NCBI GenBank assembly: GCA_964549305.1 | Contig: CAZJVM010000003.1 | Coordinates: forward strand, 31,380-95,379 | Source of the DNA: an uncultured bacterium | GTDB lineage: Bacteria > Schekmanbacteria > GWA2-38-11 > J061 | Direction of reading: 5' to 3' | Length of the DNA: 64,000 nt | In this document: positions 1 through 29,616 of the stretch, piece by piece | Position numbering within the stretch: position 1 is the first letter of the stretch | Layout of the letters: the number at the start of each line of letters is the position of its first letter | Made by a program: the position numbers and the translations under genes | The notes under the pieces: model-generated | Databases searched by the model: none | The model's input: only the letters and a program-made list of their open reading frames with translations | Told to the model about the DNA's origin: nothing

Positions 1-1032
1 ATAGGAAGCGTCGATGAATATGAGAAAGGGCGAAAAAAGCGGCAGTATGAGCATTAACGATGAACTGTTGCCGTCAGTGTTTTCTTTTAAAAAGAGATAA
101 AAAAGGAAAACGGCAATTGCGCCAAGCAATGGATTTATCAGCCATGGCACGTTGAAGAGTATTCCCGCAGCAAGAAGCAGTGATGAGCCTGCAAAGTATT
201 TTCCATACCATTTAGCTCCGTCGGTTACTATGAATTCATAATCGAAAAACTTGGGTATGGGGGGAGACTGGGCGTAAAGTTTTCCCGATGCAAACACCTT
301 TGCCTGAAAAAGGTAGGCGACTTCATCCTGTATATGGGGCATTGCGTCAAGGGCGGTAAAAAATATTACAACAGGTATGAAAATATAAAGAATCACGAGA
401 ATAATTTTTATTCCTCTGCCTGAAAGTATTCGCCTGAATGATTCAGAAAGATTGATTTTTCCCGCTGAAAGAGCAGATGCAAGGAAGAGCGAAACCGAAA
501 GGATTGCAAGAATGATTATCCCCTCGTCAACGCGGTTTCTCAAAAAAGTTGATTCGAGTTTTCCTATAAATCTCGCCGAAAGAGCGAATAGCGCTTCTGA
601 AAGAAGAAGAATGATGCAGGGAAAATAGGCGGTTTTTCTCTTGCTCTTCTCTTTTTCGCCTTTCCCGGAAAAAATGACGGATGCCGCGAGAGATATAAAC
701 AAAAATATTATGAAATAGGAAAGGCACAGGGAAATCGGAATGTAGATTTTAAAGAAATAGAGAATCAGGGGTGAGAAAGAAAGAGGCGCTGAAATAAACA
801 ATATGTTCTTGATTTTTAAAATTTCTGAGAGAGAGGAATATACGTTTAAAAACAATGCCGCTATTATTGGATAAAGAAAAACAAGAAGGGAGAATATGAA
901 AGCAGCGGAATGTCCAGGCGGATTCAGCCTTATTTTCTCTGAAATCAAAAAGCTTAAATAGAGGATGGGAATGTTAATTAAAAAAAATATGATTGATCCC
1001 GAAGGCAAAGATATCCGGTTTGTATTTTTCAT
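1..1032 (-). CDS. GT-C fold glycosyltransferase, ArnT/PMT-like (GT83/GT39-like). 3' end lies beyond the window edge. Not in the ORF track because no stop codon occurs inside the window.
   Basis: Manual reverse-complement translation from the ATG at 1032-1030 (MKNTNRISLPSGSIIFFLINIPIL...) stays open to position 1 (>340 codons). It is a multi-TM hydrophobic protein. The first extracytoplasmic loop carries the D-E-x-x-Y motif (ALDAMPHIQDEVAYLFQAKVF) typical of ArnT/PMT polyprenol-P-sugar dependent transferases. The start sits 5 nt after the stop of the upstream rSAM gene. Confidence 0.55.
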   Translation of the reverse strand, partial: MKNTNRISLPSGSIIFFLINIPILYLSFLISEKIRLNPPGHSAAFIFSLLVFLYPIIAALFLNVYSSLSEILKIKNILFISAPLSFSPLILYFFKIYIPISLCLSYFIIFLFISLAASVIFSGKGEKEKSKRKTAYFPCIILLLSEALFALSARFIGKLESTFLRNRVDEGIIILAILSVSLFLASALSAGKINLSESFRRILSGRGIKIILVILYIFIPVVIFFTALDAMPHIQDEVAYLFQAKVFASGKLYAQSPPIPKFFDYEFIVTDGAKWYGKYFAGSSLLLAAGILFNVPWLINPLLGAIAVFLFYLFLKENTDGNSSSLMLILPLFSPFLIFIDASY

Positions 1033-1037
1033 ATTTA

Positions 1038-2150
1038 TCAATACTCCCTCAGACAACACCTGAGGCAGTCATTAAAAAGTCCCTTTTTCTTAATTTTGTT
1101 TCTGAAGTTTTTGTATTGCATTGAATTCCACAATTGATGGAAAGGCGTACTGTTTATATTGCCGAGAGGAAAATGCACGCAGGGACCTATATCACCGGAA
1201 GGCGTTATCATCAATTTTTGCCACGGTGTATAACAGCGTTTTTCAAAAGGATATGAAATATCGTTGTAGTATTCATCAATCCTGTCTTCTGGCACAGAAG
1301 GATAAAAATATACTTTAAGCGGAGATTTGATTCTTTTTATTTCTTTCATCTCTGATATTACCGATTCCGCGGAGATGTCACCCTGAAACACATATCCGAG
1401 TATGTCTATGGACTTGTTATCTTCCTTTTTTATTTCATTGTTCCCTTTCTCTGTAGAAAACATGGGATGTTGAAATGAAAGCGCATCTGCGCCTATCTCC
1501 TCTGCCACGGGAACGACATCCTTTAAATTAGCGTAGTTGAAGGGGGTTATGAGGCAATTCACTCTGATAAGCGGAAAGACCGTATTCATCGATTTCTTTA
1601 TTTCGTTGAGCTTTTTCACACCGTTAATAATCTTCTGGTAAGTGTTGCCCCTGTTGCGGTTATGAATTTCTTCGGGTCCGTCAAGAGATATTACTAACCT
1701 GTCTGTGCCCGCCCTGACGGTTTCTTCGGCGAATTTTTCAAGTAGCGCGCCGTTTGTATTTACAAGAGAGTAAAGTTTGTTTTCCCGAAGAAAGGATAAA
1801 AGCTCTGTTATTCTGCTATATAAGAAAGGTTCTCCGCCTGAAAGATATATTGTCGGAGAAAAATACTTTATATGGGAAAGAAACTGTTTTAGATTATCAA
1901 AATCTAGTTCCTCATTTTGTTTTGACCGGGAAAGTTCATCCGAACTTTTCCCGAATTCGAAACATAGCTTACAGCGAAGATTGCACTTGTATGTAAGGTC
2001 AATTCTTACCGTGTCGGGAAGAAAACTAAAGCCCTTTAGGAGGCGATAATCAAGTTTTGCTTTATCCTTTACGCGCGCAAGAAAACTCCGCAATCCGTAA
2101 CGGGGATTTTTCAAAAGACTTCTGATGCGGTTTTCACTATTATTTGCCAT
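1038..2150 (-). CDS. Radical SAM enzyme with a C-terminal SPASM/twitch-like Cys cluster (anSME-like subfamily).
   Basis: CNLRCKLC (CxxxCxxC) after a 55-aa N-terminal extension. GGEP and ISLDGPEEIHN motifs are present. The C-terminus reads C-x17-C...C-x2-C-C and ends at the last residues. Confidence 0.8.
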   Translation of the reverse strand: MANNSENRIRSLLKNPRYGLRSFLARVKDKAKLDYRLLKGFSFLPDTVRIDLTYKCNLRCKLCFEFGKSSDELSRSKQNEELDFDNLKQFLSHIKYFSPTIYLSGGEPFLYSRITELLSFLRENKLYSLVNTNGALLEKFAEETVRAGTDRLVISLDGPEEIHNRNRGNTYQKIINGVKKLNEIKKSMNTVFPLIRVNCLITPFNYANLKDVVPVAEEIGADALSFQHPMFSTEKGNNEIKKEDNKSIDILGYVFQGDISAESVISEMKEIKRIKSPLKVYFYPSVPEDRIDEYYNDISYPFEKRCYTPWQKLMITPSGDIGPCVHFPLGNINSTPFHQLWNSMQYKNFRNKIKKKGLFNDCLRCCLREY

Positions 2151-2291: not shown

Positions 2292-4256
2292 CTATTTTAT
2301 ATAGCCGAGTGCCTTGAGCTTTTCCTGCATTTCGCTGTCCAATTTTGGCCTGCTTCCCGGTATTACGGTTTTTTGGATATTGATTTTTTTATCCAAAAGA
2401 GCTTTTAACTTTTCCGCTTTTTCTTTTTCACTTGAAATAATATTTAGATTTTCTTCGGGGTCGTTTCTTCTGTTGTACAATTCCGAATCACCCTTTGATG
2501 AGGTTATCAGGGTGTTTTTGGAATTTCTCAGGGAAAAAAGATCCCGTTCGAATTTCAAAATATTTTGCGCATAGAGAGAATCTTCGTATATTTCACTGAG
2601 AGCATATTCCTTTCCCGATTCGACATTTTCACCGGTGGTAAAGAGTTTAAGACTGCGGTCGGGAATGTTGTCTCTATATTCAATTCCCGCGAAATCGAGT
2701 ATAGTTTGATAAATGTCTGTTGACCCCACAATGGAATTCACAGTCAAACCTTTTTGTGTTTTTCCCGTAAAATGAATGATAAGCGGTATATGTGTCTGCT
2801 CTGTATAAAGACTATGTCCGTGATCCCACAGTCCGTGTTCACCAATACTTTCTCCATGATCTGAAGTTACTATTACAAGTGTATTATTCCATAAGCGCAA
2901 CTCTTTCATTTTTTCAAAGAGCACTCCAATATAGTTGTCGAGGAAAAGGATTTCACCATCATAAAGATCGTTCAGATGTTGAAAATATTCCGGTGATATG
3001 TTCAGTTTTCCCGTTACGGAGTCTCTTCTTCCCGCAAGGTCTTTGAATTCCACTCTTTGAGGAAAATCGATTTTATTGTCTGAAAAAATGTTGAACCTGT
3101 CAGGAGGTTCATAAGGCGAATGAACGTCATTGAAGTTTATAAATAGAAAAAATGGTTTGTCCTTTCTTATTTTTTCCAATTTTTTGGTTATCAGAGGTAT
3201 TAACTCATCTGCTTTTCTGTAACCGTTGGGAAAGACGAAGCGTTTGTAGGGTATGTAATTATCGTAACCCTTCTCGAGTATTTTTTTTGAAAGATTTAGG
3301 AATAAAAGAGGTGTTGTATTGTCGATAAATCCTAAACTGTCAACGTTTTCATCAAAGAATGAAAATCCCTGCGTAATTCCGACTTTTTTTGATAACCAGG
3401 CATTACCCGTAAAGCCAATTGTTTCCCATCCTTTTTCAGAAAGAATTTCCGCGATTGTTTGATTCGATTCATCAAGGTAGAGATGTTTGTATGTAGCACC
3501 GTGTGAAGAAGGATACAACCCCGTGAATATGGAAGAATGACTCGGGAAAGTCCACGATGACGCAGAAAAACAATTTGTGAATAAAACTCCCTTTGAGGCG
3601 AGTTTGTCGAGGTTTGGTGATGTTTTCCTTGGATATCCGTAACAGGATAAATGGTCTGCCCTTGCTGTGTCCATTACGATTAAGATTATATTAGGTTTAT
3701 CTGTTGTTCCCGGTGAAGTATCTCCGGTGTCAAAAATTGGTTTAATGAACATGATTATTAAACCTGCAATGATGAAAAGTAATGCAGTTGCGGAAATTAT
3801 TTTTTTATTTTTCCAAAATAAATTTAGTATTTTAGAAAATGCCCAAGACAGTATAACCGTGCAGAGAATGATGCCCGCAAAAACAGCAAGTCTAACAATC
3901 AAGTTTTTTTCAAGAGGATTAATGGATAGTGCAAAAAGTTTTATGTAGAAATAAACAATGAAAATTGCAGGCAGGAAGTTTTTAACATAATTTCTGATAT
4001 TTTTTGGAAATACTTTAAAAATGAGAAGAGAAAAAAAGGTTGATAACATTCCTGCGAAGAACCCGGTAATTCCGTAAAGGATGCCGGCATATGCGATTAA
4101 AGAATTGCCTGTCTGAAGGTTTGGGCTAATTAAAGAATTGCTTTTAGAGAGAAAGTAGAGTGATTCCGTTACTCCCGTTAGAAACGCAGTCAGGAATCCT
4201 GCAAAGCAATATATTATTAAAAAATCAAAATTTACGTATACTGATTTTTGTTTCAT
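2292..4256 (-). CDS. Membrane-anchored sulfatase-fold (alkaline phosphatase superfamily) transferase/hydrolase, with LtaS/EptA/MdoB-like architecture.
   Basis: About five N-terminal TM helices are followed by IILIVMDTARADHLSCYGYPRKTSPNLDKLASKG (the sulfatase N-terminal metal-binding signature). TFPSHSSIFTG sits where sulfatases have C/S-x-P-x-R, so the FGly motif is absent. Confidence 0.7.
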   Translation of the reverse strand: MKQKSVYVNFDFLIIYCFAGFLTAFLTGVTESLYFLSKSNSLISPNLQTGNSLIAYAGILYGITGFFAGMLSTFFSLLIFKVFPKNIRNYVKNFLPAIFIVYFYIKLFALSINPLEKNLIVRLAVFAGIILCTVILSWAFSKILNLFWKNKKIISATALLFIIAGLIIMFIKPIFDTGDTSPGTTDKPNIILIVMDTARADHLSCYGYPRKTSPNLDKLASKGVLFTNCFSASSWTFPSHSSIFTGLYPSSHGATYKHLYLDESNQTIAEILSEKGWETIGFTGNAWLSKKVGITQGFSFFDENVDSLGFIDNTTPLLFLNLSKKILEKGYDNYIPYKRFVFPNGYRKADELIPLITKKLEKIRKDKPFFLFINFNDVHSPYEPPDRFNIFSDNKIDFPQRVEFKDLAGRRDSVTGKLNISPEYFQHLNDLYDGEILFLDNYIGVLFEKMKELRLWNNTLVIVTSDHGESIGEHGLWDHGHSLYTEQTHIPLIIHFTGKTQKGLTVNSIVGSTDIYQTILDFAGIEYRDNIPDRSLKLFTTGENVESGKEYALSEIYEDSLYAQNILKFERDLFSLRNSKNTLITSSKGDSELYNRRNDPEENLNIISSEKEKAEKLKALLDKKINIQKTVIPGSRPKLDSEMQEKLKALGYIK

Positions 4257-4294: not shown

Positions 4295-5677
4295 TTAATT
4301 TATATAACCGAGAGTTTTTAAACGTTGTTCCAGTTTTTTGGCTATATTATCTCTTAGTTTTTGCAGTGATTTGGGAACTTCTTTGCTGTAATCTTTTTCC
4401 ATGTCTTTGTTCCATGAATAATTTTTTTCCCAATTTAGTATTTTTTCTCTAAGATTATTTGACACTTCCGGATTAACCTTAGCGATATTTAAAGATTCAT
4501 TTGGGTCTTCTTTTATATTATAAAGTTCTTCCTTTTCATAAAAATACTCTAATTCTTTAAGAGGTTTTGGATGATAACCTGTGGGATTATAAATATATTT
4601 AAAATTATCTGTTCTTACAGAAACTATTTTATTTTGCCATTCGGAATAGGCATCATTTAATTTAATATCTTTACCTTCAATGAGAGGATACAAACTGGTC
4701 CCTTCAAAATTGCTTTGAGGAGAAATTTCCAACAAGTTTAATATAGTGGGGGCAATATCAATGCTTTCAACTGTTTTATCTATTTTTTTCCCCGATGAAA
4801 TTATTCCGGGCATTTTAAATAACAGGGGAATTTTAAGAGTGCTGTCGTGAATTGAGGCGCCATGTTGAAAATAAAAATTGTGTTGATATAAATCCTCGCC
4901 ATGGTCAGCAGTAAAAACAATTAATGTTTTATCTTCCAGTTTTAATTGCCTGAGAACATTAATCAGTTTTTTAATTTCATTATCAATGCTTGCTATTTCA
5001 CCGTCATATAGTGAAATGATATGGTTTAAATCATTTTTCCGTAGTCCAATTTTATTAAGTGTGATTTTATACAATTGTTCTCTGCTTCCATTTATGTTTC
5101 CTTTATAATCAGGATCAAAGAGAGTTTTGTATGGTTCAGGCGGGTCATATGGGTCATGTGGTGCAATATAGTGTATCCAGAGAAAGATTTTCTTTTTAGA
5201 ATTATTTTTCAGCCACTTGATTGCCATAGTGGTAATTTCATTATCTCTTCCATGTTCCTGATGTTCAAAACCTCTCCACTTTGCATAATAGGAATTTGCC
5301 AAAAATGAAGCGCATGAATATCCGTTATCTCTCAATATTTCAGCCAAACTGATTTTGCCTTCAGCTAACATCATTCCGTTTTCTCTAACCCCATGGGAAA
5401 CGGGGTATAAAGAAGTCATTATTGATGTAAGTGAAGGCCATGTTTGTCCTCTTTGTGCGATTACATTAGTAAATAAGGAACCTTTACTGGCAATTTCGTC
5501 TATTGTGGGGGAAGTGTTTCTTGCATATCCGTAGCAACCCAGATGATCCGGTCTTAAAGTATCAACAGATATAAACACTACATTGTATCCACTTGTTTTT
5601 TGATTATAGAGAGTTAAGGAAATAATAACGAATATTAATAAAAGGACGGGGAAAATAATAATAAATTTTTTTTGCAT
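4295..5677 (-). CDS. Sulfatase-family protein with a signal anchor, paralog of the previous gene.
   Basis: N-terminal hydrophobic signal/anchor, then VVFISVDTLRPDHLGCYGYARNTSPTIDEIASKG. TWPSLTSIMTSLYP occupies the position of the FGly motif. Confidence 0.7.
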   Translation of the reverse strand: MQKKFIIIFPVLLLIFVIISLTLYNQKTSGYNVVFISVDTLRPDHLGCYGYARNTSPTIDEIASKGSLFTNVIAQRGQTWPSLTSIMTSLYPVSHGVRENGMMLAEGKISLAEILRDNGYSCASFLANSYYAKWRGFEHQEHGRDNEITTMAIKWLKNNSKKKIFLWIHYIAPHDPYDPPEPYKTLFDPDYKGNINGSREQLYKITLNKIGLRKNDLNHIISLYDGEIASIDNEIKKLINVLRQLKLEDKTLIVFTADHGEDLYQHNFYFQHGASIHDSTLKIPLLFKMPGIISSGKKIDKTVESIDIAPTILNLLEISPQSNFEGTSLYPLIEGKDIKLNDAYSEWQNKIVSVRTDNFKYIYNPTGYHPKPLKELEYFYEKEELYNIKEDPNESLNIAKVNPEVSNNLREKILNWEKNYSWNKDMEKDYSKEVPKSLQKLRDNIAKKLEQRLKTLGYIN

Positions 5678-5985: not shown

Positions 5986-7422
5986 ATGTTATTTAACTCA
6001 ATAGAATTTGCAATATTCCTTCCTGTGGTGTTCATCATCTACTGGTTTATCCTAAAAAAGAATTTTAAAGCTCAAAACTTCTTTCTCCTTGTTTCAAGTT
6101 ACATATTCTACGGATGGTGGGACTGGAGATTTTTATCATTGATAATATTCAGTTCATCTGTGGATTACTTTGTAGGAATTGCGTTGTCGCGTGAGGAGAA
6201 GGAAGCAAAACGGAAACTTTTTTTACTTATCAGCATTTTAGTGAACTTGGGGTTGCTCGGATTTTTTAAATACTGGAATTTTTTCGTGGAGAGTTTTTCC
6301 GAAGCATTTACGCTTTTCGGAAAACATATAGAACCGGACAGACTGAATATCATACTTCCTGTGGGAATAAGTTTTTACACATTTCAAACTCTGAGTTATT
6401 CGATAGACGTCTACAGAAAAAAGTTTCGTCCCACCAAAGATGTTCTGGCATTTTTTGCCTTTGTGAGTTTTTTCCCTCAATTGGTTGCCGGTCCAATAGA
6501 AAGGGCAGTAAATCTTTTGCCGCAATTCTCCAGGGAGCGTAAATTTGATTACGAAAAATCGGTTGACGGAATGCGTCAGATTCTTTGCGGATTGTTTAAA
6601 AAAATCGTTATAGCGGATAATTGCGCAGTTTTAGTCAATGACATTTTTTTAAATTATGACAAATATTCGGGCAGTACTCTTTTGGCAGGTACGGTTTTTT
6701 TCGCTTTTCAGATATATTGCGATTTTTCGGGCTATTCTGACATCGCAATAGGCACGGCAAGATTGTTTGGTTTTCAACTGATGAGAAATTTCGCGTTTCC
6801 CTATTTTTCAAGGGATATTGCTGAATTCTGGCGAAGATGGCATATTTCCCTTTCAACGTGGTTTCGTGATTATGTCTATATCCCCCTCGGAGGTAGCAGG
6901 GGAAGCACTTGGGAAAAAATACGAAATACCTTTGTAATCTTTCTTGTAAGCGGATTCTGGCACGGGGCGAACTGGACATTTATAGTTTGGGGATTTATCA
7001 ATGCCCTATATTTCCTTCCTCTGCTACTTCTTAAACGAAACAGAAAATTCACTGACAATGCGGCGGAAGGGAAAATATTTCCCGGAATCAGGGAATTTTT
7101 TCAGATTTGCTGCACTTTCGGATTAACGGTTGTGGCGTGGATATTTTTTAGAGCGGAAAACATCAGCCAAGCTTTAAGTTATCTGTCTTCAATGTTTTCC
7201 GCTTCTTTATTTTCTCTTCCGAAAATAAAGTCGGGTAATTTAATTATTATTCTTTTGATCTTTATTTTTGTTGAATGGTTTCAGCGAGACAAGCAGCATG
7301 CCCTTCAGTTTGACAATGTAAAAATACCCGCTTTCATTCGCTGGGGCATTTATTATGCGATTATTCTAATGATTTTCGGATTAGGCGGAAATAAGCAGGA
7401 GTTCATCTATTTTCAGTTTTAG
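5986..7422 (+). CDS. MBOAT family membrane-bound O-acyltransferase (AlgI/DltB-like).
   Basis: Multi-TM protein. It carries the conserved WRRWHISLSTWFRDYVYIPLGGSRG block with the catalytic His. Confidence 0.85.
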   Translation: MLFNSIEFAIFLPVVFIIYWFILKKNFKAQNFFLLVSSYIFYGWWDWRFLSLIIFSSSVDYFVGIALSREEKEAKRKLFLLISILVNLGLLGFFKYWNFFVESFSEAFTLFGKHIEPDRLNIILPVGISFYTFQTLSYSIDVYRKKFRPTKDVLAFFAFVSFFPQLVAGPIERAVNLLPQFSRERKFDYEKSVDGMRQILCGLFKKIVIADNCAVLVNDIFLNYDKYSGSTLLAGTVFFAFQIYCDFSGYSDIAIGTARLFGFQLMRNFAFPYFSRDIAEFWRRWHISLSTWFRDYVYIPLGGSRGSTWEKIRNTFVIFLVSGFWHGANWTFIVWGFINALYFLPLLLLKRNRKFTDNAAEGKIFPGIREFFQICCTFGLTVVAWIFFRAENISQALSYLSSMFSASLFSLPKIKSGNLIIILLIFIFVEWFQRDKQHALQFDNVKIPAFIRWGIYYAIILMIFGLGGNKQEFIYFQF

Positions 7423-7427
7423 GAACG

Positions 7428-8312
7428 ATGAAAAAATTTTTAGAGAAAATATCATTATTTGTGCTTATCTATTGCCTCATTATGACTGTCAATTTTCTTT
7501 TAAACTCCTACTTCATTCAAACCAACAGTCCAAAAATAAATGCAGGGACTCTCGTGACAGGTGATTCATATACCGCCCTTGCAATCAATCCTGAAATAAT
7601 GAGAGATTCGGCAAACATCAGCATATTTGCCGAACCGTATATCATCACTTATTTTAAAATGAGAAAAATACTTAAAACGAATTCATTAAGAACAATACTG
7701 ATCGGTTATTCCTATCACAACATTTCCGCATTCAATGATACGAAATTCAAGGACCCCGTCTGGTCACACAGGTTTTTCGAGAAAAGTTATCCCATTTTAT
7801 CTCTTTCGGATTTGGAAGGTCTGGATGTCAATTATCTGGAATATATTAAAGTAATAAACAAATATATGTGTTCATATCCTTCCTCGCGTCATTACAGTTA
7901 TATAGGTTCTTTCCAAAGGGATTTTGACAGGTCTGAAGAATTTAACAGTGAGGAAGCAATCGAGAGACATTTCTTTATTGATAGCGAAAATGCGGGAATA
8001 TCGAAAATCTCGGAAAATTATTTGGATATGCTGTTGGGACTGGCGAATGAACGGAATATAAAGGTAATTCTGCTTTCCACTCCCCTGCATAAATCTTATC
8101 TTGATAAAGTTCCCGTAAATTTCAAGGAAGAATATGATGAATTCAGAAAAAAAATATTGAAAAAATATGCAAATACGGCCTTTTGGGATTACAGCAAATT
8201 GTTTTCGGAAAATAAATATTTTAAAAACACCGACCATTTAAACATCGATGGGGCGAATAAATTTTCACAACTTCTGAGAGAACGCCTCCAGAAAAAAATA
8301 GACTTTAAATAG
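7428..8312 (+). CDS. SGNH/DltD-AlgJ-like partner protein of the MBOAT acyltransferase.
   Basis: N-terminal signal anchor, a GDSYT block and a C-terminal DHLNIDGANKF (D-x-x-H) block. Starts 6 nt after the MBOAT stop. Confidence 0.5.
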   Translation: MKKFLEKISLFVLIYCLIMTVNFLLNSYFIQTNSPKINAGTLVTGDSYTALAINPEIMRDSANISIFAEPYIITYFKMRKILKTNSLRTILIGYSYHNISAFNDTKFKDPVWSHRFFEKSYPILSLSDLEGLDVNYLEYIKVINKYMCSYPSSRHYSYIGSFQRDFDRSEEFNSEEAIERHFFIDSENAGISKISENYLDMLLGLANERNIKVILLSTPLHKSYLDKVPVNFKEEYDEFRKKILKKYANTAFWDYSKLFSENKYFKNTDHLNIDGANKFSQLLRERLQKKIDFK

Positions 8313-18445: not shown

Positions 18446-18449
18446 TTGT

Positions 18450-21570: not shown

Positions 21571-22974
21571 TTATCCGAACCACTTTTTTTCCGTTGCCGT
21601 TCGAAGGTCTGATTTTTTTCCCTTGATTATATCCTCTGCCACATTGAGTCCCATTTCAACGGAATGGTCCATATTGTTGTATCTGAAAAGTGCGTTTCTT
21701 CCGAAATAGTGAAGATTGTCAAATCCCTCGAGATAGTCTTTTATTACCGTTACGTGTTGACGGTAGTATATGTCATAAATGGGATAGGCGTGTTTAAGCT
21801 TGCAGAGAAAATAGCTTTCCACATCATTTTCACCTATCAGACCCATTTGCACAAGGTCTTCCGTTACTCTGTCAACGATTCTCTCATCATTCATATTCCA
21901 GATTCTGTCTCCGAAAAAGCAGGTGACTTCGGCGCATATAATTGTCTTTCTCGGGGGCGCGGAGTTTTCGTTGAAATTTTTGAACTCAGAAAACCGGTTG
22001 CTTATAAATTTTCTCTCGGGCATATAAATCCAGTGATTTGCACTCAAACGCGGTCTGTTAACAACAAGATAGACAAAAACGATTGAGCGGAAAAAAAGCT
22101 CTGAGCAGGACTGTTTGATTTTCCCTTCGGGTTCGGGTGTTATGAGAGAAACAAGGTCTGTAAGGGGGATAGTTGAACAGAAATAATCGTATTCTTCCTT
22201 TTTAGGCGATGAGCCGTTTTCATAAGAAATTGAGAGAATTCTATTCTTGTCTGTTTCAATCTCTTTCACTTCAGCGCCCGTAATAACCTTGTTTCCCATA
22301 GCAAGTATTTTCTCTCTGTATTTTTCGCATATCGTCCCTATCCCGCCGTTTTCAGGATAGGAAAATTCAGAGACATAGGTGCGGGGAATATTTTTGGGTC
22401 TAAAAAGCGTTTTCATTATCACATCTGTGAGATTGAGCAGAGTTATCCTCTGTGAGGCATAATCCGCGGATATTTCCGTACAGGCGAGTCCCCAGGTTTT
22501 TTCCGTATATTCCTTGAAAAAAATTTCATAAAGCTTGTTGCCGAATCTCTTGCTTACCCAGTTTTCAAATGAATTGTCGGGAATGGACTGTAATATTATT
22601 TTGGCATAAACATAGTCATAGAAAATTTTAAGAAGTGTAAAGAAGGGCATCTTGGAAATGACATCCATTGCGCTTAAAGGGTAGATGAAATATCTGTTTT
22701 TAAGATATATTTCACTTTTTCTGATTTTCTTGACGGTTTTGTCGTCAAGGACTTCTCTTATATGGTCAACAAGCTCTTTTTTTTCTGAATGAAACCTGTG
22801 GGGTCCAAGGTCGCAGGTGAATTCGCCCTTTTTGAAACTTCGCGCGAGACCTCCCACATAATCTTCTTTTTCGATGACAGTAACGTCAAACCCCGCTTTG
22901 GAAAGTTCATACGCGCAGGTCAATCCCGCGAGCCCGGCGCCTAAAACAGCAACTTTTCTGTTTCTTTTATCCAT
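21571..22974 (-). CDS. FAD-dependent oxidoreductase, UDP-galactopyranose mutase (Glf)-like.
   Basis: N-terminal dinucleotide fold VAVLGAGLAGLTCAYEL...VIEKEDYVGG. LYEIFFKEYTEKTWGL resembles Glf LYEAFFKGYTIKQWGM, and the C-terminal FGRNALFRYNNMD block also matches. It is about 70-100 aa longer than classical Glf. Confidence 0.5.
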   Translation of the reverse strand: MDKRNRKVAVLGAGLAGLTCAYELSKAGFDVTVIEKEDYVGGLARSFKKGEFTCDLGPHRFHSEKKELVDHIREVLDDKTVKKIRKSEIYLKNRYFIYPLSAMDVISKMPFFTLLKIFYDYVYAKIILQSIPDNSFENWVSKRFGNKLYEIFFKEYTEKTWGLACTEISADYASQRITLLNLTDVIMKTLFRPKNIPRTYVSEFSYPENGGIGTICEKYREKILAMGNKVITGAEVKEIETDKNRILSISYENGSSPKKEEYDYFCSTIPLTDLVSLITPEPEGKIKQSCSELFFRSIVFVYLVVNRPRLSANHWIYMPERKFISNRFSEFKNFNENSAPPRKTIICAEVTCFFGDRIWNMNDERIVDRVTEDLVQMGLIGENDVESYFLCKLKHAYPIYDIYYRQHVTVIKDYLEGFDNLHYFGRNALFRYNNMDHSVEMGLNVAEDIIKGKKSDLRTATEKKWFG

Positions 22975-23110: not shown

Positions 23111-23863
23111 ATGGAAAAAGATGTTTATTCCGAGTTTCTGAATCTCGAAAAAAATCACTGGTGGTTTCTTGGAAGAAGAAGCATTTTCTTTAGCCTTTTG
23201 GATAAATTTTTGGACGGCAGAAAAGATTTGAATATAATCGACGTGGGATGCGGTCCGGGGGAGATGATTGAACCCCTTGAAAAATACGGTAATGTAACTG
23301 CCTGTGATATCACATTCGATGCCCTTGATTTTTGTTCGGAAAGGGGTTTCAACCTGCTTATGCTTGCAGACGGAAGCAGACTTCCCGTTAAGGATGAAAG
23401 TTATGACCTTCTCTCCCTCTTCGATACACTTGAGCATATCGACGATGATGTGTCAGTCCTCAGGGACTCATACCGTGTGCTCAAAGACGGTGCATTCGTG
23501 ATTATAACGCTTCCCGCGTATAATTTTCTTTTCAGCAATAACGACCGCGCGGCACATCATAAAAGGCGTTACAGCGCCGGCGAGATAAGCAGAAAGGCGC
23601 AGGTTGCCGGATTTAATGTAAGAAAGGTTACCTATATCAATACATTTCTTTTCCCGGTGATTTTTTCTGCGCTAATTTTGATAAAAATAAAGGAAGCTAT
23701 TTTTCCTGTTGCAAATCCGGATAAAACGAATATTTCTTTTTCGGTTCCCCAAATAATTAACAGCATACTGGCATCTATTTTTTGTTTTGAAAGCAGGATT
23801 CTCAAGAATATATCATTTCCATTCGGACATTCTCTCGTATGCATAGCGCAAAAGAAAAAATAA
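23111..23863 (+). CDS. Class I SAM-dependent methyltransferase.
   Basis: IIDVGCGPGEM motif I and a LFDTLEHI region, with a hydrophobic C-terminus. Confidence 0.7.
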   Translation: MEKDVYSEFLNLEKNHWWFLGRRSIFFSLLDKFLDGRKDLNIIDVGCGPGEMIEPLEKYGNVTACDITFDALDFCSERGFNLLMLADGSRLPVKDESYDLLSLFDTLEHIDDDVSVLRDSYRVLKDGAFVIITLPAYNFLFSNNDRAAHHKRRYSAGEISRKAQVAGFNVRKVTYINTFLFPVIFSALILIKIKEAIFPVANPDKTNISFSVPQIINSILASIFCFESRILKNISFPFGHSLVCIAQKKK

Positions 23864-25350
23864 TACTTTTTCATCCTCGAACCGCTTTTTCCTCCACCGG
23901 TTCCATCGTGCCTCTTCATCTTCTTGCGGTGTGCAGGCATTTGGACAGCCAAAAATTCGATGTGCTCATAATAAACGGTGAAATGGAGCACGACTACAGG
24001 GAAAAGCTCAAAGAGCATTGCAAGGATGCCCTGTGCATCGGCATCGGATTTATGACCGGATATCAGATTAAACAGGCAATCGAGGCATCTAAGATTGCCC
24101 GTGATGTTAACCCGGGCATAAGGGTTATATGGGGCGGATGGCATCCCTCTGTTTCAACTGAGCAGACTCTCGAACATCCCCTCGCTGACATATTAGTGCG
24201 TGGACAGGGAGATGTTGTTTTCTCCGAACTTGTAAACGCGATTTCCGAAGGAAGGGATATTTCCGCCATAAAGGGACTTGCTTTCAGGAAAAACGGTGCG
24301 ATAACAATAACCGATGATAATTATCTCGAAGATTTAAAATCGTTCGATTCTCTGCCTTTCCAACTTCTTCCTCTCAACGATTATATCAGGGGGACGCGCC
24401 TCGGACTTAGAAATATTCATTACTACTCAAGTCAGGGGTGTCCGTTCAGATGTTCGTTCTGTGCCGATTCCCTTGTTAACAAAAGAAGGTGGGTAAGCAT
24501 CTCAAATGAACAGTTTATCGAAGATGTGAAATTTCTCAGGAAAGAATGCAATATAGATTCGGCAACGGTCATAGACAGTAATTTTTTCGTTGATATGAAA
24601 AGAATCAGAGGGCTTGCAGACCTTCTTGTGAAAGAAAATCTTGGCGTAAAGTATGGCGGTTTGAACGGTCGCGCGGCACAGTTGAAAAAAATTGAAACTT
24701 CCGAATGGAAGCATTTTTCAGAAGCGGGATTCAAAGAACTTTTCGTCGGTGTGGAATCCGCTCTTCAGGAACAGCTGAATTTCATAAAAAAGGATACGAA
24801 GGCGACTGATGTACTCGAACTGGCAGACAACTTAAAGGGTGTTGATATAAGTCTCACTTTTTCTCTTATAATGGGACTGCCAGGGTCTTCAGAGAGAATG
24901 AATGATATATCCGCCGACCTTGACAGGGAACTTGAAAGCGCTTTATCTCTTACGAAAAAGGTATTCGAGGCAAACCCAGGCGCAACTGCCTGGTTTTTCC
25001 TCTATACTCCCTATCCCGGGACTCCGCTTTTTGACAGAAGTGTTGAAAACGGTTTCAAAAAGCCCGTAAGTCTCGAAGAATGGGAGGGGATGGACCTTGG
25101 AAACATAAACATACCGTGGATTTCAAAGACATTCGCAAACAAAGTTTCCTTCTTCACGGAATTCATTTTCTATTTTTTGCTGGAGGAAAGGTTGAATAAT
25201 TTTCTGAAAAGCAAAGGTTCCGTCATGAAAAAAGTTATTTATATCATTTTGCATAACCTTGCCAGATTCAGATGGAAAACCGGTTTTTTCTCATTGCGAT
25301 TTGAGAATTCCCTTGTTAAATTCCTTAGAAAGTTGTCAGGGGGAGTTTAA
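23839..25350 (+). CDS. B12-binding radical SAM protein (class B rSAM), second copy.
   Basis: N-terminal B12-binding domain. CPFRCSFC motif. Overlaps the preceding MTase by 25 nt. Confidence 0.8.
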   Translation: MHSAKEKIILFHPRTAFSSTGSIVPLHLLAVCRHLDSQKFDVLIINGEMEHDYREKLKEHCKDALCIGIGFMTGYQIKQAIEASKIARDVNPGIRVIWGGWHPSVSTEQTLEHPLADILVRGQGDVVFSELVNAISEGRDISAIKGLAFRKNGAITITDDNYLEDLKSFDSLPFQLLPLNDYIRGTRLGLRNIHYYSSQGCPFRCSFCADSLVNKRRWVSISNEQFIEDVKFLRKECNIDSATVIDSNFFVDMKRIRGLADLLVKENLGVKYGGLNGRAAQLKKIETSEWKHFSEAGFKELFVGVESALQEQLNFIKKDTKATDVLELADNLKGVDISLTFSLIMGLPGSSERMNDISADLDRELESALSLTKKVFEANPGATAWFFLYTPYPGTPLFDRSVENGFKKPVSLEEWEGMDLGNINIPWISKTFANKVSFFTEFIFYFLLEERLNNFLKSKGSVMKKVIYIILHNLARFRWKTGFFSLRFENSLVKFLRKLSGGV

Positions 25351-25382: not shown

Positions 25383-26438
25383 TTACGCTTTATGCAAATA
25401 GCTTTTGTCGTATTCCATAAGAATATGAGCGGATGTTTTGATTTTTTCCGACAACGACATTTCCTCAGGTATGGACTTGCCCGTAAGTTTTCTCAGAAGT
25501 TTCGATGCTCTTTTCATCTCATCACCGCCTTTTACGCAGTTTTTAAGGATTTCTTCTGCAGTTTCAAAAAAAAGCGATGTTGAATTAACGGCAAGATTTG
25601 CTCTTTTGCGGGTTTTTAAATTGTAACTTACATACCTGATATAATCATTCACTTTAAAACCACGATTAATTTTTCCCGAGAGTAAATCAAGAAATTTTTC
25701 AGTTGTCTCTTTTGCTTCAGAAATCGGGTAATGCCCCGCGTAATCCCCTTCAAATCTTGAAGCAATTGCGTCGCGGAGAAATCGAGAAAATTCTGAGCTT
25801 ATTTCCCTTTCATACTCTAATGCCTTTTCAGAACATTTTTTAAGACTGTAAAAGTTTTTCCACTCTCCGTAGGAGGCATTGTTTTCTTTAAAGAATAAAA
25901 ATGCCTGAAATGCCTGAATTGCCGATTTTTCAAAATAGGGCATTCCGGAGTCGCCTTCGCTTATTCCCTTGATTAAAAATTTATAGGCCCGTTTCAGGTT
26001 ATTTACCGGTTCCGGAGTCTTCATCTTATCAAGCGTTCTGTCGAGACCGTTCTCTTTTTTTAAAGTTTTTCCCGCAAGTGTGGTGAGATGAAATTTCAGA
26101 GCTTTATCCCAAACAATGATAAATTCGATATCTCTGATAACATTTATCCTTGATTTTAATTGGGCAAGGAGATGGTTTTTCCGCGCGGAAATGCTTTGCC
26201 ATAAGGAATCGAAGACAAGAAAGATATCTACATCGCTTGAAACTTCGCTTTTCCGGTTTTTCTCGATGGTTTTTCCCTCTGCGTAACAAAGACTTCCTCC
26301 GAGAATAATCGAGCATTTAGGGAATTCAGAGGATATTGATTCAACTAATGATTCAATTTCTTTCTTAATTTCATTGTTTAAGGGATTTTCTTTATCAATG
26401 AGAAATGTTTCGGATTGAATCAATTTGCTTTCAGTCAT
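25383..26438 (-). CDS. Hypothetical protein with a Pol-beta-like nucleotidyltransferase-fold motif.
   Basis: GGSLCYAEG...SDVDIFLVF (G[GS]...DxD) near the N-terminus, with a helical C-terminal region. Confidence 0.3.
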   Translation of the reverse strand: MTESKLIQSETFLIDKENPLNNEIKKEIESLVESISSEFPKCSIILGGSLCYAEGKTIEKNRKSEVSSDVDIFLVFDSLWQSISARKNHLLAQLKSRINVIRDIEFIIVWDKALKFHLTTLAGKTLKKENGLDRTLDKMKTPEPVNNLKRAYKFLIKGISEGDSGMPYFEKSAIQAFQAFLFFKENNASYGEWKNFYSLKKCSEKALEYEREISSEFSRFLRDAIASRFEGDYAGHYPISEAKETTEKFLDLLSGKINRGFKVNDYIRYVSYNLKTRKRANLAVNSTSLFFETAEEILKNCVKGGDEMKRASKLLRKLTGKSIPEEMSLSEKIKTSAHILMEYDKSYLHKA

Positions 26439-26538: not shown

Positions 26539-27687
26539 ATGTCTTCGAAAGTATCCCTTGTATCGTGTGCCGAATATGAAAAGGAAAAAGTTGATTCAGC
26601 GGTAAAGGAAGCAGTAGGCCTTTTAGGCGGAATCGAAAAATTCGTATCAGGCGGAAACAGGGTGCTTATCAAGCCGAATCTCCTTTCGGGAAAACCTCCG
26701 GAAAAAGCCGTAACAACCCATCCTATGGTGCTTGCCGCGGTAATTGATTTGGTAAGGGAGGCGGGAGGCATTCCCGTAGTTGGAGACAGTCCGGCAACGG
26801 AAGGCAAGGGAAGTCTCGAGAAATTCAAAAAGGTTTGCGAAATCACCGGCATTCTCGATGTCGTTGAAAAGAAAGAGGTCGAACTTGCCCATTTCAGCTC
26901 ATCGAGAATCGAAATCGAAAACCCCGAAGGGAAAATATTTAAGAAATTTACTGTTACCGAAGAGATTAAAAAATGTGATGTCCTTATTAATCTTTGTAAG
27001 CTCAAGACGCACGGACTGACGCTTCTCACGGGGGCGGTGAAGAACCTTTTCGGATGCGTGCCGGGGCTTTTAAAGGGACAGCTTCATATGCGCGCCCCCC
27101 ACAGGCCCGAGTTTTCACAGATGCTCGTTGACCTTTATCAGGTTGTAAAGCCCTCGATTAATATAATGGACGCCGTTGTGGGAATGGACGGCAACGGTCC
27201 CGGAAACGGAAACCCGAGAAAAGTGGGGGCAGTCATAGCAAGTATCGATGCAGTCGCGCTGGATTCCGTTGCCTGCCAGATAATCGGAAAAAGCCCCTAT
27301 GCCCTCGACACATGCAAAATTGGGGAATCACAGGGAATAGGTGTCGCGAATCCCCATGAGATAGAAGTGCTTGGAGACGATGTGGGAAAATTTTTAGTAT
27401 CGGACTATGAAGTGCTTGTAGATGATGTTACGGACAAACCACTTATGAGGTTTATTATCGCGCTTATGCGTGAGAGGACAACGGCTAAACCGGTAGTTGA
27501 CAAGAAGAAATGTACAGGGTGTAAAACCTGCCACGTTGCCTGCGTGCCGGAGGCGATAACTATGGCCGATGGCTATCCGGTGATGGATTACGATAAATGT
27601 ATAAAATGTTACTGTTGTCACGAAGTTTGTCCCGAAGGAGCAATCAACCTTAAAAAAGGGCTTCTTTACAGGCTGCTTTCAAGATAA
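26539..27687 (+). CDS. DUF362-family protein with a C-terminal 2x[4Fe-4S] ferredoxin domain.
   Basis: CTGCKTCHVACVPEAI and CIKCYCCHEVCPEGAI ferredoxin motifs after a DUF362-like body. Confidence 0.65.
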   Translation: MSSKVSLVSCAEYEKEKVDSAVKEAVGLLGGIEKFVSGGNRVLIKPNLLSGKPPEKAVTTHPMVLAAVIDLVREAGGIPVVGDSPATEGKGSLEKFKKVCEITGILDVVEKKEVELAHFSSSRIEIENPEGKIFKKFTVTEEIKKCDVLINLCKLKTHGLTLLTGAVKNLFGCVPGLLKGQLHMRAPHRPEFSQMLVDLYQVVKPSINIMDAVVGMDGNGPGNGNPRKVGAVIASIDAVALDSVACQIIGKSPYALDTCKIGESQGIGVANPHEIEVLGDDVGKFLVSDYEVLVDDVTDKPLMRFIIALMRERTTAKPVVDKKKCTGCKTCHVACVPEAITMADGYPVMDYDKCIKCYCCHEVCPEGAINLKKGLLYRLLSR

Positions 27688-27702
27688 AGAGAGAGAAAAG
27701 AA

Positions 27703-29616
27703 TTGTCGTCTAAAGACAGCAGAGCGTATCTTGCCGCAATATTCCTCATCTTTGTTTTTCATTTTGTCTGTGCCGCCGGATTTTTTTCCAATGTGGATAT
27801 AGATTCAGGATTTCCCGTATTGAATGACGATTACTCCATTCATTTCGGCCACGTGGACCCTGTAAAGGAATTCTTCAGGGACAGTTTCAGGTTGTGGGGA
27901 TATGACCCTTTTTATATGGCGGGATTGCCTAAGTCCACGGTTTTTGACGCAGACGCAAAGTCGCCGGAAATAATAGGTGTTATCTTTTCTTTTGCCGATT
28001 CGGCAACGGTTTACAATATCTATATCTTTCTGAATTACATTCTTGCTCCTCTGCTTTTTCTCTGGTCGATTTTCAATTTCGGATTAAGAAGATGGGGGCT
28101 TGCCACGGGATTTGCCGCAGGCGTATTTTACTGGTGGGCATATCCGGCATTCAGGTTCAATCTCGCGGGACAATTCGCATTCATCTTCGTATCTCATATT
28201 ACATTGCTTATATTTTCTCTCTTTTACCGTTATGTGGATTCCGGTAAATTCCGCTTCATAGCGCTTTGCGGTGTAATCGGAGCTATTGCCCTTTCGGTAC
28301 ACATCCTTGCGCCCATAAACATCGCGGTGGGGTCGCTCATCCTTTATGCAGTTGCCTTTAAAAAAATGAGCGGGAAACAACACGCGGGGCTTTTTGCCTG
28401 CCTTGCTTTTATTCTCATTGCGAACAGCCCCTGGGTGATACCTTTTATACGTTTCTACGGAATGAATAATCTTGCTGATATCGACTGGTTTTTCGGCGCC
28501 ACCAATCCTTTCTTTTTTCTCGAAGCGTATTTTCCCGGAGGGGCAATCTACAGATATCTTCGCCTCGCTATTTTGATTGCCTCGATTGGCGGTTTTATGA
28601 AATGGAAAAAAGAAAAAAATATCCTCTTTTATCCCGTGCTCGGCAACGCGCTCATACTTTTTATCTATTCATACTTCGGCGCCTATTCAACGCTTACATT
28701 TCTGCAAAATCCATGGCGCTACGAATTTGAACTGAATCTTTTTCTCCTTGCCCCGGCGGCAGTTTATCTGAATTCACTTTTTGAAAAGAACGGTTTCAGC
28801 AGAAAAATTTTACCTCTTGCCGTTTCCCTCTTCCTCATTGTCTGCCTTTTTCCGCTAAATGCTTTTAAGTCAGCAAAACGTCTCATTCCCCGTTACAGAA
28901 ATGAAAGAATTGTAAAATATGACCGTCTCACCCCTTTGAAAAACGGAGAGGTGGAGTATTCATACGAGGAACTTCCTCACTCATCGCTTCCTCCTGCGGG
29001 GTATGAGTTTATTGAATGGATTAAACGGAATACCACAAAAGATGCGCGGATAATGCTTGAAGATTCCTGCTGGCAGTCTCGTCACGCCTATTGGGGTTCG
29101 CATCTTCCGGCAATGCTTCCAACGCTCACCGGAAGGGAATATATCGGCGGGCCAATCCCACAGTATTTTATGGTGCACCATTATGCGAGTTTTCAGGACG
29201 GTTTTTTCTGCGGCAAGTATCTCGATGAATACGACGAAGAAGAATTCCTTGAAAAGACAGATCTCTATAACATCAAGTGGATAGTTGCCTTTACGCCCTA
29301 CTCGAGAAATTTTCTGGAAAAAATTCCGGAAAGAGTTCACCTTATTGACAGGGTTGATAAATTCTATCTTTACGAGATTACGCGAAAGCAGGATTTTTTC
29401 CTCGAGGGAAGGGGAGAGATAAAATCCGCTTACAATCACCTTTATCTTTCAGGGCTTTCCGAAGGCGAGGATATAATAATCAAATATCACTGGATAAAAA
29501 CGCTTAAAACATCGCCTCCGAGAAAGTTAAGCGAATTTAAAATAAAGGATGACCCTGTGGGCTTTATAAAGGTTGAGAATGTTCCCTCTGAGATTGAAAT
29601 CTATAACGGATATTAA
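27703..29616 (+). CDS. Large polytopic membrane protein with a C-terminal soluble domain (GT-C-like architecture).
   Basis: About 11 TM helices followed by a roughly 230-aa hydrophilic domain. Coupled to the DUF362 gene (15-nt gap). Confidence 0.35.
   Translation: MSSKDSRAYLAAIFLIFVFHFVCAAGFFSNVDIDSGFPVLNDDYSIHFGHVDPVKEFFRDSFRLWGYDPFYMAGLPKSTVFDADAKSPEIIGVIFSFADSATVYNIYIFLNYILAPLLFLWSIFNFGLRRWGLATGFAAGVFYWWAYPAFRFNLAGQFAFIFVSHITLLIFSLFYRYVDSGKFRFIALCGVIGAIALSVHILAPINIAVGSLILYAVAFKKMSGKQHAGLFACLAFILIANSPWVIPFIRFYGMNNLADIDWFFGATNPFFFLEAYFPGGAIYRYLRLAILIASIGGFMKWKKEKNILFYPVLGNALILFIYSYFGAYSTLTFLQNPWRYEFELNLFLLAPAAVYLNSLFEKNGFSRKILPLAVSLFLIVCLFPLNAFKSAKRLIPRYRNERIVKYDRLTPLKNGEVEYSYEELPHSSLPPAGYEFIEWIKRNTTKDARIMLEDSCWQSRHAYWGSHLPAMLPTLTGREYIGGPIPQYFMVHHYASFQDGFFCGKYLDEYDEEEFLEKTDLYNIKWIVAFTPYSRNFLEKIPERVHLIDRVDKFYLYEITRKQDFFLEGRGEIKSAYNHLYLSGLSEGEDIIIKYHWIKTLKTSPPRKLSEFKIKDDPVGFIKVENVPSEIEIYNGY

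Follow-up and report, generated by a model that had tools for sequence, protein, structure and literature searches.

A radical SAM-rich envelope glycan locus of probably modular make-up, and two candidate families of sugar-tailoring radical enzymes

Nucleotide-sugar chemistry, which involves no radicals, is the usual explanation for surface glycan loci, and radical chemistry on sugars has its precedents in BtrN, NeoN, HygY, BlsE, DesII, AprD4 and GenK. NeoN is a sugar epimerase of the radical S-adenosylmethionine (rSAM) type (PMC10991966). Unannotated rSAM genes have been noted in the capsule region of C. jejuni HS:19 (PMC8743553), a 2026 review of B12-binding rSAM enzymes does not mention polysaccharide substrates (PMC12931638), and our full-text literature search found no characterised rSAM enzyme in O-antigen, capsule or bacterial surface-polysaccharide synthesis. 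Here, we describe a locus of 22 genes, labelled g00 to g21, at positions 1-29616 of a 64,000-nucleotide stretch of contig CAZJVM010000003.1 (the window, meaning the whole stretch that was analysed). Within these 30 kb lie five rSAM genes, or six with the leftward extension described below, compared with one in the other 34 kb of the window. The genes were defined by open reading frame (ORF) listing with Pfam and NCBIfam scans, and the inventory of an initial annotation, made from the sequence alone, was recovered with its ORFs and domains in place. We consider it reasonably likely that this is a hypervariable, low-GC, horizontally shuffled, modular envelope glycoconjugate locus beside gdh. With less confidence, we propose that the g01/g08 and g15 families are unrecognised classes of radical carbohydrate-tailoring enzymes for envelope glycan assembly.

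The rSAM genes and the flavoenzyme gene that lies between the two B12-binding members are:

g01, 1038..2150, minus strand: twitch-type rSAM enzyme (Radical_SAM and SPASM domains), paralog of g08
g08, 12010..13191, minus strand: twitch-type rSAM enzyme (Radical_SAM and SPASM domains), a strain-variable one-gene insertion
g10, 14657..15646, minus strand: short SPASM/twitch rSAM enzyme (Radical_SAM and SPASM domains), core module
g15, 20134..21564, plus strand: class B rSAM enzyme (PF02310 57 bits, PF04055 78 bits; CPFKCTYC)
g16, 21571..22974, minus strand: UDP-galactopyranose mutase (UGM)-like enzyme with flavin adenine dinucleotide (NF005548, Pfam GLF)
g18, 23839..25350, plus strand: second class B rSAM enzyme (PF02310 44 bits, PF04055 40 bits; CPFRCSFC)

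The division into three SPASM/twitch and two B12-binding rSAM enzymes was thus confirmed at the level of domains. Pfam and NCBIfam family cutoffs served as the yardstick for class assignment, with general Pfam scans at E <= 0.01. L-numbers denote related loci from genome and metagenome scans, and P-numbers denote homologous proteins.

The evidence that carries a role in sugar chemistry is the company that these genes keep. Homologs of g01/g08 turned up in 80 loci of a genome scan, spread over many phyla, and 23 of these loci were taken for a neighbour census, in which Pfam scans covered the 122 genes located up to three genes away from the rSAM gene. About one-third of these neighbours were glycosyltransferases (GTs) of the GT4 and GT2 families, Wzy_C or PMT_2 (18, 9, 7 and 6 genes, respectively), and the set also held further rSAM genes and methyltransferases (5 each) and polysaccharide deacetylases and formyltransferases (4 each). 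The phyla covered were Omnitrophota, Deltaproteobacteria, Acidobacteriota, Binatia, Rokubacteria, Schekmanbacteria, Aminicenantes, Melainabacteria, Patescibacteria and others. A g08-like gene is divergent from a g00-like PMT_2 gene in L003, L013, L020 and L061; g01/g08-like genes abut g10-like genes in L016, L017, L022, L023, L028, L054, L056 and L063, with Aminicenantes and Acidobacteriota among these loci; and g01/g08-like genes stand beside a B12-binding rSAM gene in L017, L026, L057 and L077. The association extends to single proteins. In P0304, a GT2 domain is naturally fused to an rSAM-SPASM unit, the rSAM part of which belongs to the g08 family (33% identity over residues 32-391), while P0315, P0325, P0354, P0361 and P0380 are tandem fusions of two or three g08-related rSAM units (779-1444 aa). 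Because the rSAM genes adjoin sugar-transfer genes so consistently, we favour a sugar-tailoring role: as judged from sequence, these enzymes probably tailor sugars rather than peptides.

The initial annotation had described g01, g08 and g10 as a paralogous, anSME-like (anaerobic sulfatase-maturating enzyme-like) trio. The general architecture and the kinship of g01 with g08 (30% identity) stood, but g10 proved to be only remotely related to both, and the anSME model TIGR03942 (cutoff 349 bits) gave 59.7 bits for g01 and 39 bits for g10 and was absent from the 25 best families of g08. Each of the three proteins has one CX3CX2C motif, which begins at residue 56 in g01 and g08 and at residue 63 in g10; in g01 it spans residues 56-63, and the C-terminal Cys residues are 306, 324, 362, 365 and 366. 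The g01 ortholog in L016 (49% identical) lies beside a g00 ortholog, and g10, which overlaps g11 by 26 nt, has orthologs in L086 (71%) and L088 (49%). An exhaustive search with g08 returned 413 clusters (50%-identity representatives) at E <= 1e-30. The only Cys residues conserved among 135 aligned family members were the rSAM triad, Cys319/337/376/379 (at least 99%) and Cys380 (90%), and the C-terminal spacing in the g01/g08 family is C-x17-C-x38-C-x2-C. Four to five conserved C-terminal Cys residues correspond to one auxiliary cluster and not two, so that the family is twitch-like on its sequence, with a Cys set sufficient for a single auxiliary [4Fe-4S] cluster.

The N-termini are short. Across 133 family members, the CX3CX2C triad is preceded by a median of 53 aa, and this leaves too little space for a recognition element (RRE) of the kind that serves ribosomally synthesised and post-translationally modified peptides (RiPPs), and the AF2 model of g08 (pLDDT 91.7) places a single helix before the rSAM core. 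From N-terminus length and this model, no RRE (PqqD-like) domain was found in g01, g08 or g10. Residues 16-37 of g08 form a conserved aromatic N-terminal helix, in which R20, Y31, W32 and Y35 hardly vary across the ten homologs closest to g08; this helix could contact the membrane interface or help to bind the substrate. Anti-phage defence was also considered and set aside, as PADLOC gave only partial similarity of the rSAM core to pVip/viperins and nothing for the GTs. One g08 homolog (36%) lies on L027, a contig labelled as a Klebsiella pneumoniae metagenome-assembled genome, in a GT-rich context like that of the other environmental loci; the label is probably a binning or labelling error.

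Both g15 and g18 have an N-terminal B12-binding domain followed by an rSAM core with CX3CX2C, which is the class B architecture. AprD4-type class B members do not methylate, and methyl transfer is accordingly a candidate activity of g15 and g18 and not one that follows from their sequences. The two proteins are 24% identical to each other, and g18 has an ortholog in L086 (81%). The g15 family is large: more than 2,688 homologs were counted, and identity stays near 45% from one phylum to the next (Chlamydiota, Nitrospinae, Chloroflexi, Planctomycetota and Acidobacteriota). The best NCBIfam models were HpnJ for g15 (120 bits, cutoff 578) and BchE for g18 (126 bits, cutoff 481); the HpnJ, PhpK and BchE models scored 100-126 bits against cutoffs of 480-600, and no characterised class B equivalog was matched. 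A BchE-like role in tetrapyrrole synthesis was rejected on this score and on the unfitting context. Homologs of g15 adjoin a g16 ortholog in L086, L088 and L102, and they flank PMT_2 together with further rSAM and methyltransferase genes in the Chlamydiota locus L089 and the Nitrospinae locus L172, the latter of which also carries a GT9 and a sugar epimerase.

The same matches bear on an alternative, in which the B12-binding rSAM enzymes, and perhaps the twitch enzymes, act on a membrane lipid or on the sugar that forms the head-group of a glycolipid, by hopanoid- or calditol-type ring contraction or lipid C-methylation, and the GT and GT-C genes build that glycolipid. The NCBIfam models matched by g15 and g18 include HpnJ, HpnR and "lipid biosynthesis B12-binding rSAM", g01 matches the tetraether synthase Tes (52 bits), and g16 matches HpnE (67 bits). 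Homologs of g15 repeatedly adjoin genes for enzymes of the PMT_2/ArnT type, a group with some lipid-acting members, and HpnJ and Cds are proposed rSAM ring-contraction enzymes on lipid-bound sugars (PMC13459092). However, these scores are 4-10 fold under the cutoffs, the similarity of g16 to UGMs is stronger and extends over the whole protein, and no match to squalene/hopene cyclase or to phospholipid or ether-lipid synthesis came from scans of the 22 locus genes and their flanking genes, which covered about 40 of the window's 49 ORFs. We regard lipid modification as unlikely and keep to the tailoring of glycan sugars in what follows.

The reading of g16 as a Glf-like flavoenzyme agrees with its best PDB matches, which are UGMs, headed by the UDP-galactopyranose mutase of T. 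cruzi (4dsg, E 3.6e-23), which aligns at full length (residues 6-450). It exceeds the cutoffs of NF005548, a "hypothetical protein" family (402 bits, cutoff 389), and of Pfam GLF (26.7, cutoff 26.3), while TIGR00031 gives 69 bits against a cutoff of 304. The pairing with a B12-binding rSAM gene occurs a second time to the left of the window. The JGI contig L091 is 99.3% identical over window 1-8920 and reaches 4.4 kb further left, where L091:8929-13291 completes g00 and adds another flavoprotein of the amine-oxidase/UGM-like kind (24% identical to g16) and a third rSAM enzyme with a B12-binding domain (28% identical to g15). Both additional genes were confirmed with Pfam; the contig carries frameshifts. 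The locus thus has at least six rSAM genes and a repeated B12-rSAM/flavoenzyme pair, and of the limits first drawn at 1 and 29616, the right one stands at gdh (g22, 29632-30915), whereas on the left the locus continues with the sixth rSAM gene and the second flavoenzyme. A general adjacency of g16 and B12-rSAM genes was rejected: a g15-like or extension-type B12-rSAM match was present in 6 of 80 metagenome loci, among which the pair is adjacent in L102 and the match overlaps the g16 ORF call in L163.

Comparison with relatives separates what is conserved in this locus from what is exchanged. The source organism is Schekmanbacteria-like by its proteins, with Gdh, g24 and g26 being 68-75% identical to their counterparts in JACRJM01 (L082). 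In a relative with 84% identity (L086/L087), g06-g07-g09 through g21 and gdh are collinear with the window, and g08 is missing: the blastn blocks skip window 11982-13246, a clean one-gene indel between g07 and g09. JACRJM01 keeps only g19-g20-(small GT2)-g21-gdh and has other glycan genes on its left side (DegT, GT2, two GDSL genes and a g07-like gene). In the Schekmanbacteria GWA2_38_11 locus L016, g10-g09-g06-g01-g00 are contiguous, without g02-g05, g07 and g08. The unrelated assembly L088 has orthologs of g07, g10, g11, g12, g14, g15, g16, g17 and g19 in shuffled order at 35-66% identity, accompanied by four more GT4s and a WecA-type Glycos_transf_4. The nine-gene core g07, g10-g12, g14-g17 and g19 is thus conserved elsewhere as a set of orthologous sequences, and other cassettes come and go. 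By these comparisons, the locus appears to be made of a core that contains rSAM genes, a pair of GT-C and twitch rSAM genes, a cassette for phospho-transfer and O-acylation, and a g20-g21 anchor. The synteny comparison therefore has two sides, a core kept in L088 and a variable mosaic around it, and the idea of a single dedicated glycan machine did not survive it.

Such a mosaic also raises the question of whether the density of rSAM genes is coincidental, with unrelated glycan and non-glycan islands lying side by side and no shared rSAM pathway. The g08 indel, the absence of g02-g05 at the L016 junction, the replaced left part of L082 and the at least seven transcription units on both strands of the locus would all agree with this. 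Nonetheless, nine genes, including two rSAM genes, stay together in distant L088 despite their shuffled order, rSAM-rSAM adjacency recurs across loci, tandem rSAM fusion proteins exist, and other rSAM-rich glycan clusters are present in the data (L089, L084 and L172). Coincidence therefore seems to us quite unlikely, and we return to a shared role of the rSAM enzymes in sugar tailoring.

It is important to note that several findings weigh against this role. All the rSAM enzymes of the locus fall below every curated equivalog cutoff, so that their function rests on context, and the assignment of each to a family model, which had been envisaged at the outset, placed none of the five. The best NCBIfam match of the SPASM-type enzymes is "W-cofactor maturase" (74-124 bits, cutoff 380), and the twitch subfamily model NF033640 (cutoff 170 bits) gives 97 bits for g08, 79 for g01 and 70 for g10. 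The fold search with g08 fails to separate sugar- from peptide-acting enzymes, as its PDB neighbours in Foldseek are SkfB, SuiB, BlsE, viperin, PqqE, anSME, MoaA, DesII and BtrN (TM 0.44-0.61); the fold thus assigns no substrate, and genomic context was used instead. The nearest solved structures to g15 are MgmA (9ccb, identified through PMC11796369 and PMC12931638) and AprD4 (6fd2), both at about 63 bits, that is, a protein methylase and a sugar dehydratase. Homologs of g15 in L090 and L173 stand in non-glycan contexts, and the tie of the wider g16 family to glycans is loose (GtrA 5, epimerase 4 and PMT_2 3 of 110 neighbours). Finally, Wzy_C, Bac_transf, Glycos_transf_4 and export families were unmatched among the 22 locus genes in Pfam scans, so that the locus departs from the textbook O-antigen or capsule type. 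Genes for Wzy, an initiating phosphoglycosyltransferase, chain length and export could sit beyond the window.

The partner genes of the rSAM enzymes include GTs, a flippase and methyltransferases:

g00, 1..1032, minus strand: N-terminal 344 aa of a PMT_2-type GT-C of about 740 aa, cut by the window edge
g06, 8531..10462, plus strand: polytopic GT-C-like glycosyltransferase (sub-threshold NCBIfam LA_3751/LA_3752)
g07, 10465..11982, plus strand: polytopic membrane protein, probable GT-C, core module
g09, 13228..14640, minus strand: MOP-superfamily Wzx/MurJ-type flippase (Pfam MurJ, Polysacc_synt, Polysacc_synt_3)
g11, 15621..16325, minus strand: class I SAM methyltransferase, MTS/PrmA-like (Pfam MTS 58.8 bits), core module
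g12, 16326..17471, minus strand: GT4 (Glycos_transf_1 105 bits), core module, orthologs in L086 and L088
g13, 17468..18445, minus strand: GT2 (Glycos_transf_2), polyprenol-phosphate-sugar-synthase-like
g14, 18869..19999, minus strand: GT4 (Glycos_transf_1 121 bits, Glyco_transf_4), core module, orthologs in L086 and L088
g17, 23111..23863, plus strand: class I SAM methyltransferase (Methyltransf_11 65 bits)
g20, 26539..27687, plus strand: DUF362 protein (215 bits) with a C-terminal 2x[4Fe-4S] ferredoxin domain (Fer4)
g21, 27703..29616, plus strand: GT-C-fold glycosyltransferase with a beta-rich periplasmic C-terminal domain

Four to five GT-C-like proteins had been counted initially, and four are plausible: g21 by its fold, g00 by orthology, and g06 and g07 as borderline cases. 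On its model, g21 has a GT-C fold and represents a rare family outside current domain libraries. It has no Pfam or NCBIfam match and 16 homologs were found; the AF2 model, built on 13 of them, has a pLDDT of 78 and a pTM of 0.81. Foldseek ranks 1-30 are all GT-C enzymes (ranks 1-23 at E 2e-7 to 7e-5, TM about 0.5), with STT3, AglB, PglB, AftA, AftD, DPY19, ArnT, Emb, ALG3, PMT and ALG6 among the matches, and D43 ("NDDYS") in the first extracytoplasmic loop is invariant in the 13 homologs. For g00, which has about 10 hydrophobic segments and "IQDE" where the PMT_2-homologous part starts, the ortholog L016:5811-7610 passes Pfam PMT_2 (40.6 bits, cutoff 26.1). The g06 protein matches the putative GT models of Leptospira LA_3751/LA_3752 under their cutoff (73 bits, E 1.5e-20) and Pfam GT87 at E 1.3e-3, and has orthologs in L016 and L086. 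There is no direct family match for g07; its ortholog L082:2431-3879 reaches 24.8 against a GT87 cutoff of 25, with weak PMT_2 similarity, and further orthologs are in L086 (69%) and L088 (51%), with that of L082 at 41%.

The combination of polyprenol-phosphate-sugar synthesis and GT-C transfer that had been predicted fits these genes. Along with the four GT-C-like proteins, the locus encodes g13, which has sub-threshold matches to the AglJ, PpgS, PgfS, DPM and ArnC models and two C-terminal transmembrane (TM) helices; a small GT2 gene also directly precedes g21 in L082 and L084, and the window is without it. The flippase gene g09 has orthologs in L016 and L086. Only two of three proposed SAM methyltransferases could be detected, namely g11, with orthologs in L086 (82%) and L088 (63%), and g17, which overlaps g18 by 25 nt and has orthologs in L086 (85%) and L088 (66%). 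The ferredoxin-like g20 was considered as a reductant for the rSAM enzymes and rejected, since synteny did not support it: g20 follows g21 even where no rSAM gene of the variable locus is near. The two travel together in the Schekmanbacteria-type relatives L082, L083 and L087, and L086 ends within g20.

The remaining genes of the locus are:

g02, 2292..4256, minus strand: six-TM anchor with a sulfatase-fold domain (Pfam Sulfatase 183 bits)
g03, 4295..5677, minus strand: one-TM-anchored sulfatase-fold protein with a Thr nucleophile
g04, 5986..7422, plus strand: MBOAT membrane O-acyltransferase (Pfam MBOAT 112 bits; DltB 148 bits, cutoff 375)
g05, 7428..8312, plus strand: TM-anchored 294-aa protein
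remnant, 18446..18868, minus strand: 424-bp decayed remnant of an SGNH/GDSL gene
g19, 25383..26438, minus strand: 351-aa protein that travels with the core module

Phospho-transferases of the LtaS/EptA type are marked by a Thr nucleophile combined with a membrane anchor. When g03 is aligned to 4upi/4upl, the residue in the place of formylglycine is Thr ("QTWPSL") and that in the place of the Arg is Leu, and a motif search found no [CS]x[PA]xR in g02 or g03. In g02, which has about six TM helices and weak EptA/CptA/MCR matches, "WTFPSH" was taken, from its resemblance to g03 and without a structure alignment of its own, as the motif of the nucleophile region; by sequence, g02 is a putative phospho-substituent transferase of the alkaline-phosphatase superfamily. 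The earlier reading of both proteins as sulfatase-fold and LtaS-like thus stands for the fold, the membrane anchors and the Thr of g03, but not at the level of family models: EptA, CptA and LtaS give 27-62 bits against cutoffs of 400-970, and the best overall matches are arylsulfatase-type models, also under cutoff. Of an MBOAT protein with an SGNH partner, the first is clear in g04. For g05, no family match was found at E <= 1, and its sequence shows no more than "TGDS" behind the TM anchor and "DHLN" towards the C-terminus; as it starts 5 nt downstream of g04, it may be an SGNH-like partner of the MBOAT. An SGNH gene has decayed elsewhere in the locus: L086 has an intact 377-aa gene at the position of the remnant, and when this gene (L086:7602-8735) is compared with the remnant by tblastn, the last 35 aa align at 63% identity (E 4e-12) and two internal fragments also match. 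Library scans gave no family match for g19, the "GGS...DVDIF" motif of which suggests a Pol-beta-type nucleotidyltransferase; its orthologs are in L086, L082, L088 and L169, the last two of which also have g16 orthologs.

The two sulfatase-fold genes beside g01, the RiPP maturases SkfB and SuiB as top Foldseek matches of g08 and many NCBIfam peptide maturases at 40-80 bits are what speaks for rSAM enzymes acting as peptide or protein maturases of the RiPP or anSME type, next to unrelated glycan genes. Maturation of a sulfatase by an anSME is at odds with the Thr nucleophile, the missing CxPxR motif (Thr and Leu at its Cys and Arg positions in g03) and anSME scores far under the cutoff (60 bits against 349 for TIGR03942), and the four to five conserved C-terminal Cys of the g08 family differ from the seven to eight that make the two auxiliary clusters of anSME and full SPASM proteins. 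A RiPP role was likewise rejected: besides the lack of room for an RRE and the short gene spacing (5-40 nt), none of the intergenic ORFs of at least 20 aa that were inspected was Cys- or Gly-rich or had a recognisable Shine-Dalgarno-like sequence in the 20 nt upstream, and domain scans found no peptidase, peptide exporter or ABC exporter in window 1-29616. With all maturase scores far under cutoff and GTs as neighbours across phyla, and with the GT2::rSAM fusion, we consider peptide maturation very improbable, in agreement with the preference for carbohydrates in the initial annotation.

For the tailoring of sugars by rSAM enzymes, we propose the following pathway, of which all substrates, the order of steps and the radical chemistry are inferred. 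In the cytoplasm, g16, the B12-binding enzymes g15 and g18, the twitch enzymes g10, g08 and g01, and the methyltransferases g11 and g17 would tailor sugars, either as nucleotide sugars or on a lipid carrier. The GT4s g12 and g14 would build a lipid-linked glycan, which g09 would flip across the membrane, and g13 would supply polyprenol-phosphate-monosaccharide donors. In the periplasm, the GT-C proteins g00, g06, g07 and g21 would transfer sugars from these donors, with a polysaccharide, a lipid or a protein as candidate acceptors, while g04 and g05 would O-acylate the glycan and g02 and g03 would add phospho-substituents. By analogy with the known enzymes, candidate radical reactions are C-methylation, dehydrogenation or epimerisation, decarboxylation, dehydration and ring contraction.

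The composition of the locus sets it apart from its surroundings. GC content is 0.32-0.43 in its genes, with the exception of g20 (0.47), and 0.41-0.48 in the flanking housekeeping genes; the lowest GC content at third codon positions in the window is that of g03 (0.26), with g02 at 0.35. Rfam and tRNA scans of the whole window gave no matches. Elsewhere in the window, at 33299-35351, a GT9 (heptosyltransferase-like) gene adjoins a "variant radical SAM" gene (NF045502, 180 bits, cutoff 125), which is MSMEG_0568-like and has CX2C-type Cys instead of CX3CX2C; as this pair is kept with gdh in the Schekmanbacteria relative L082, it is a separate, stable unit. A class I metal chelatase cluster occupies 39976-50840, roughly 10 kb away from the genes for B12-binding rSAM enzymes; it encodes a CobN/ChlH subunit of 1300 aa, three AAA+ proteins of the ChlI/ChlD-like type, one of which carries a VWA domain, a P-type ATPase and a 223-aa protein rich in His.

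If the proposal is right, the surface glycans of many uncultured phyla contain radical-derived sugars installed by GT-C enzymes, whether C-methylated, epimerised at unactivated centres, deoxygenated or carbocyclic. It thus predicts unfamiliar sugar structures in candidate phyla, and it ties two large, widespread rSAM families to glycosyltransferases through conserved neighbourhoods and domain fusion. The nine-gene core, the pair of twitch rSAM and PMT_2 and the pair of B12-rSAM and UGM-like enzyme offer targets for rSAM enzymology, and g21 exposes a GT-C family that current domain libraries miss.

Among known enzymes, the twitch carbohydrate rSAMs, namely the dehydrogenase BtrN, the epimerases NeoN/HygY and the decarboxylase BlsE, are most like the g01/g08 family. 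They too have one rSAM cluster and a Cys set for one auxiliary cluster (C-x18-C-x43-C-x2-C in BtrN), no RRE and a carbohydrate context, and BlsE is the second-best PDB sequence match of g08 and a top Foldseek match (TMt 0.72). Identity, however, is 15-19%, with the NF033640 cutoff out of reach for g08; the known twitch sugar enzymes act on small aminoglycosides or nucleosides in antibiotic pathways and not in envelope glycan loci, and the g01/g08 family carries in addition its conserved aromatic N-terminal helix. The class B sugar rSAMs, namely the C-methylases GenK/GenD1, the diol dehydratase AprD4 and the proposed ring-contraction enzyme HpnJ, share the B12-binding domain and rSAM core with g15 and g18, and AprD4 is the second-best solved relative of g15; but with cutoffs at 480-600 bits, matches reach only some 60-120 bits, and the g15 family forms a separate, very large clade.

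At the level of the whole locus, Wzx/Wzy O-antigen and capsule loci share the low GC, the hypervariability and the conserved housekeeping flanks, along with GT4s, a GT2, a Wzx-type flippase and an O-acyltransferase; they differ in their Wzy, Wzz, initiating phosphoglycosyltransferase and export genes, none of which was found among g00-g21. Systems that combine polyprenol-phosphate donors with GT-C enzymes (ArnC-ArnT, GtrA/B/C, PMT, and mycobacterial Glf with Aft/Emb) share the DPM1/ArnC-like GT2, the GT-Cs and the UGM-like enzyme, whereas the present locus has four divergent GT-C paralogs, no GtrA and the association with rSAM genes. The type of system is therefore a known one, an envelope glycan locus with polyprenol-phosphate donors and GT-C logic, and what is new relative to the searched literature is the conserved role of two uncharacterised rSAM families and the GT-C family of g21.

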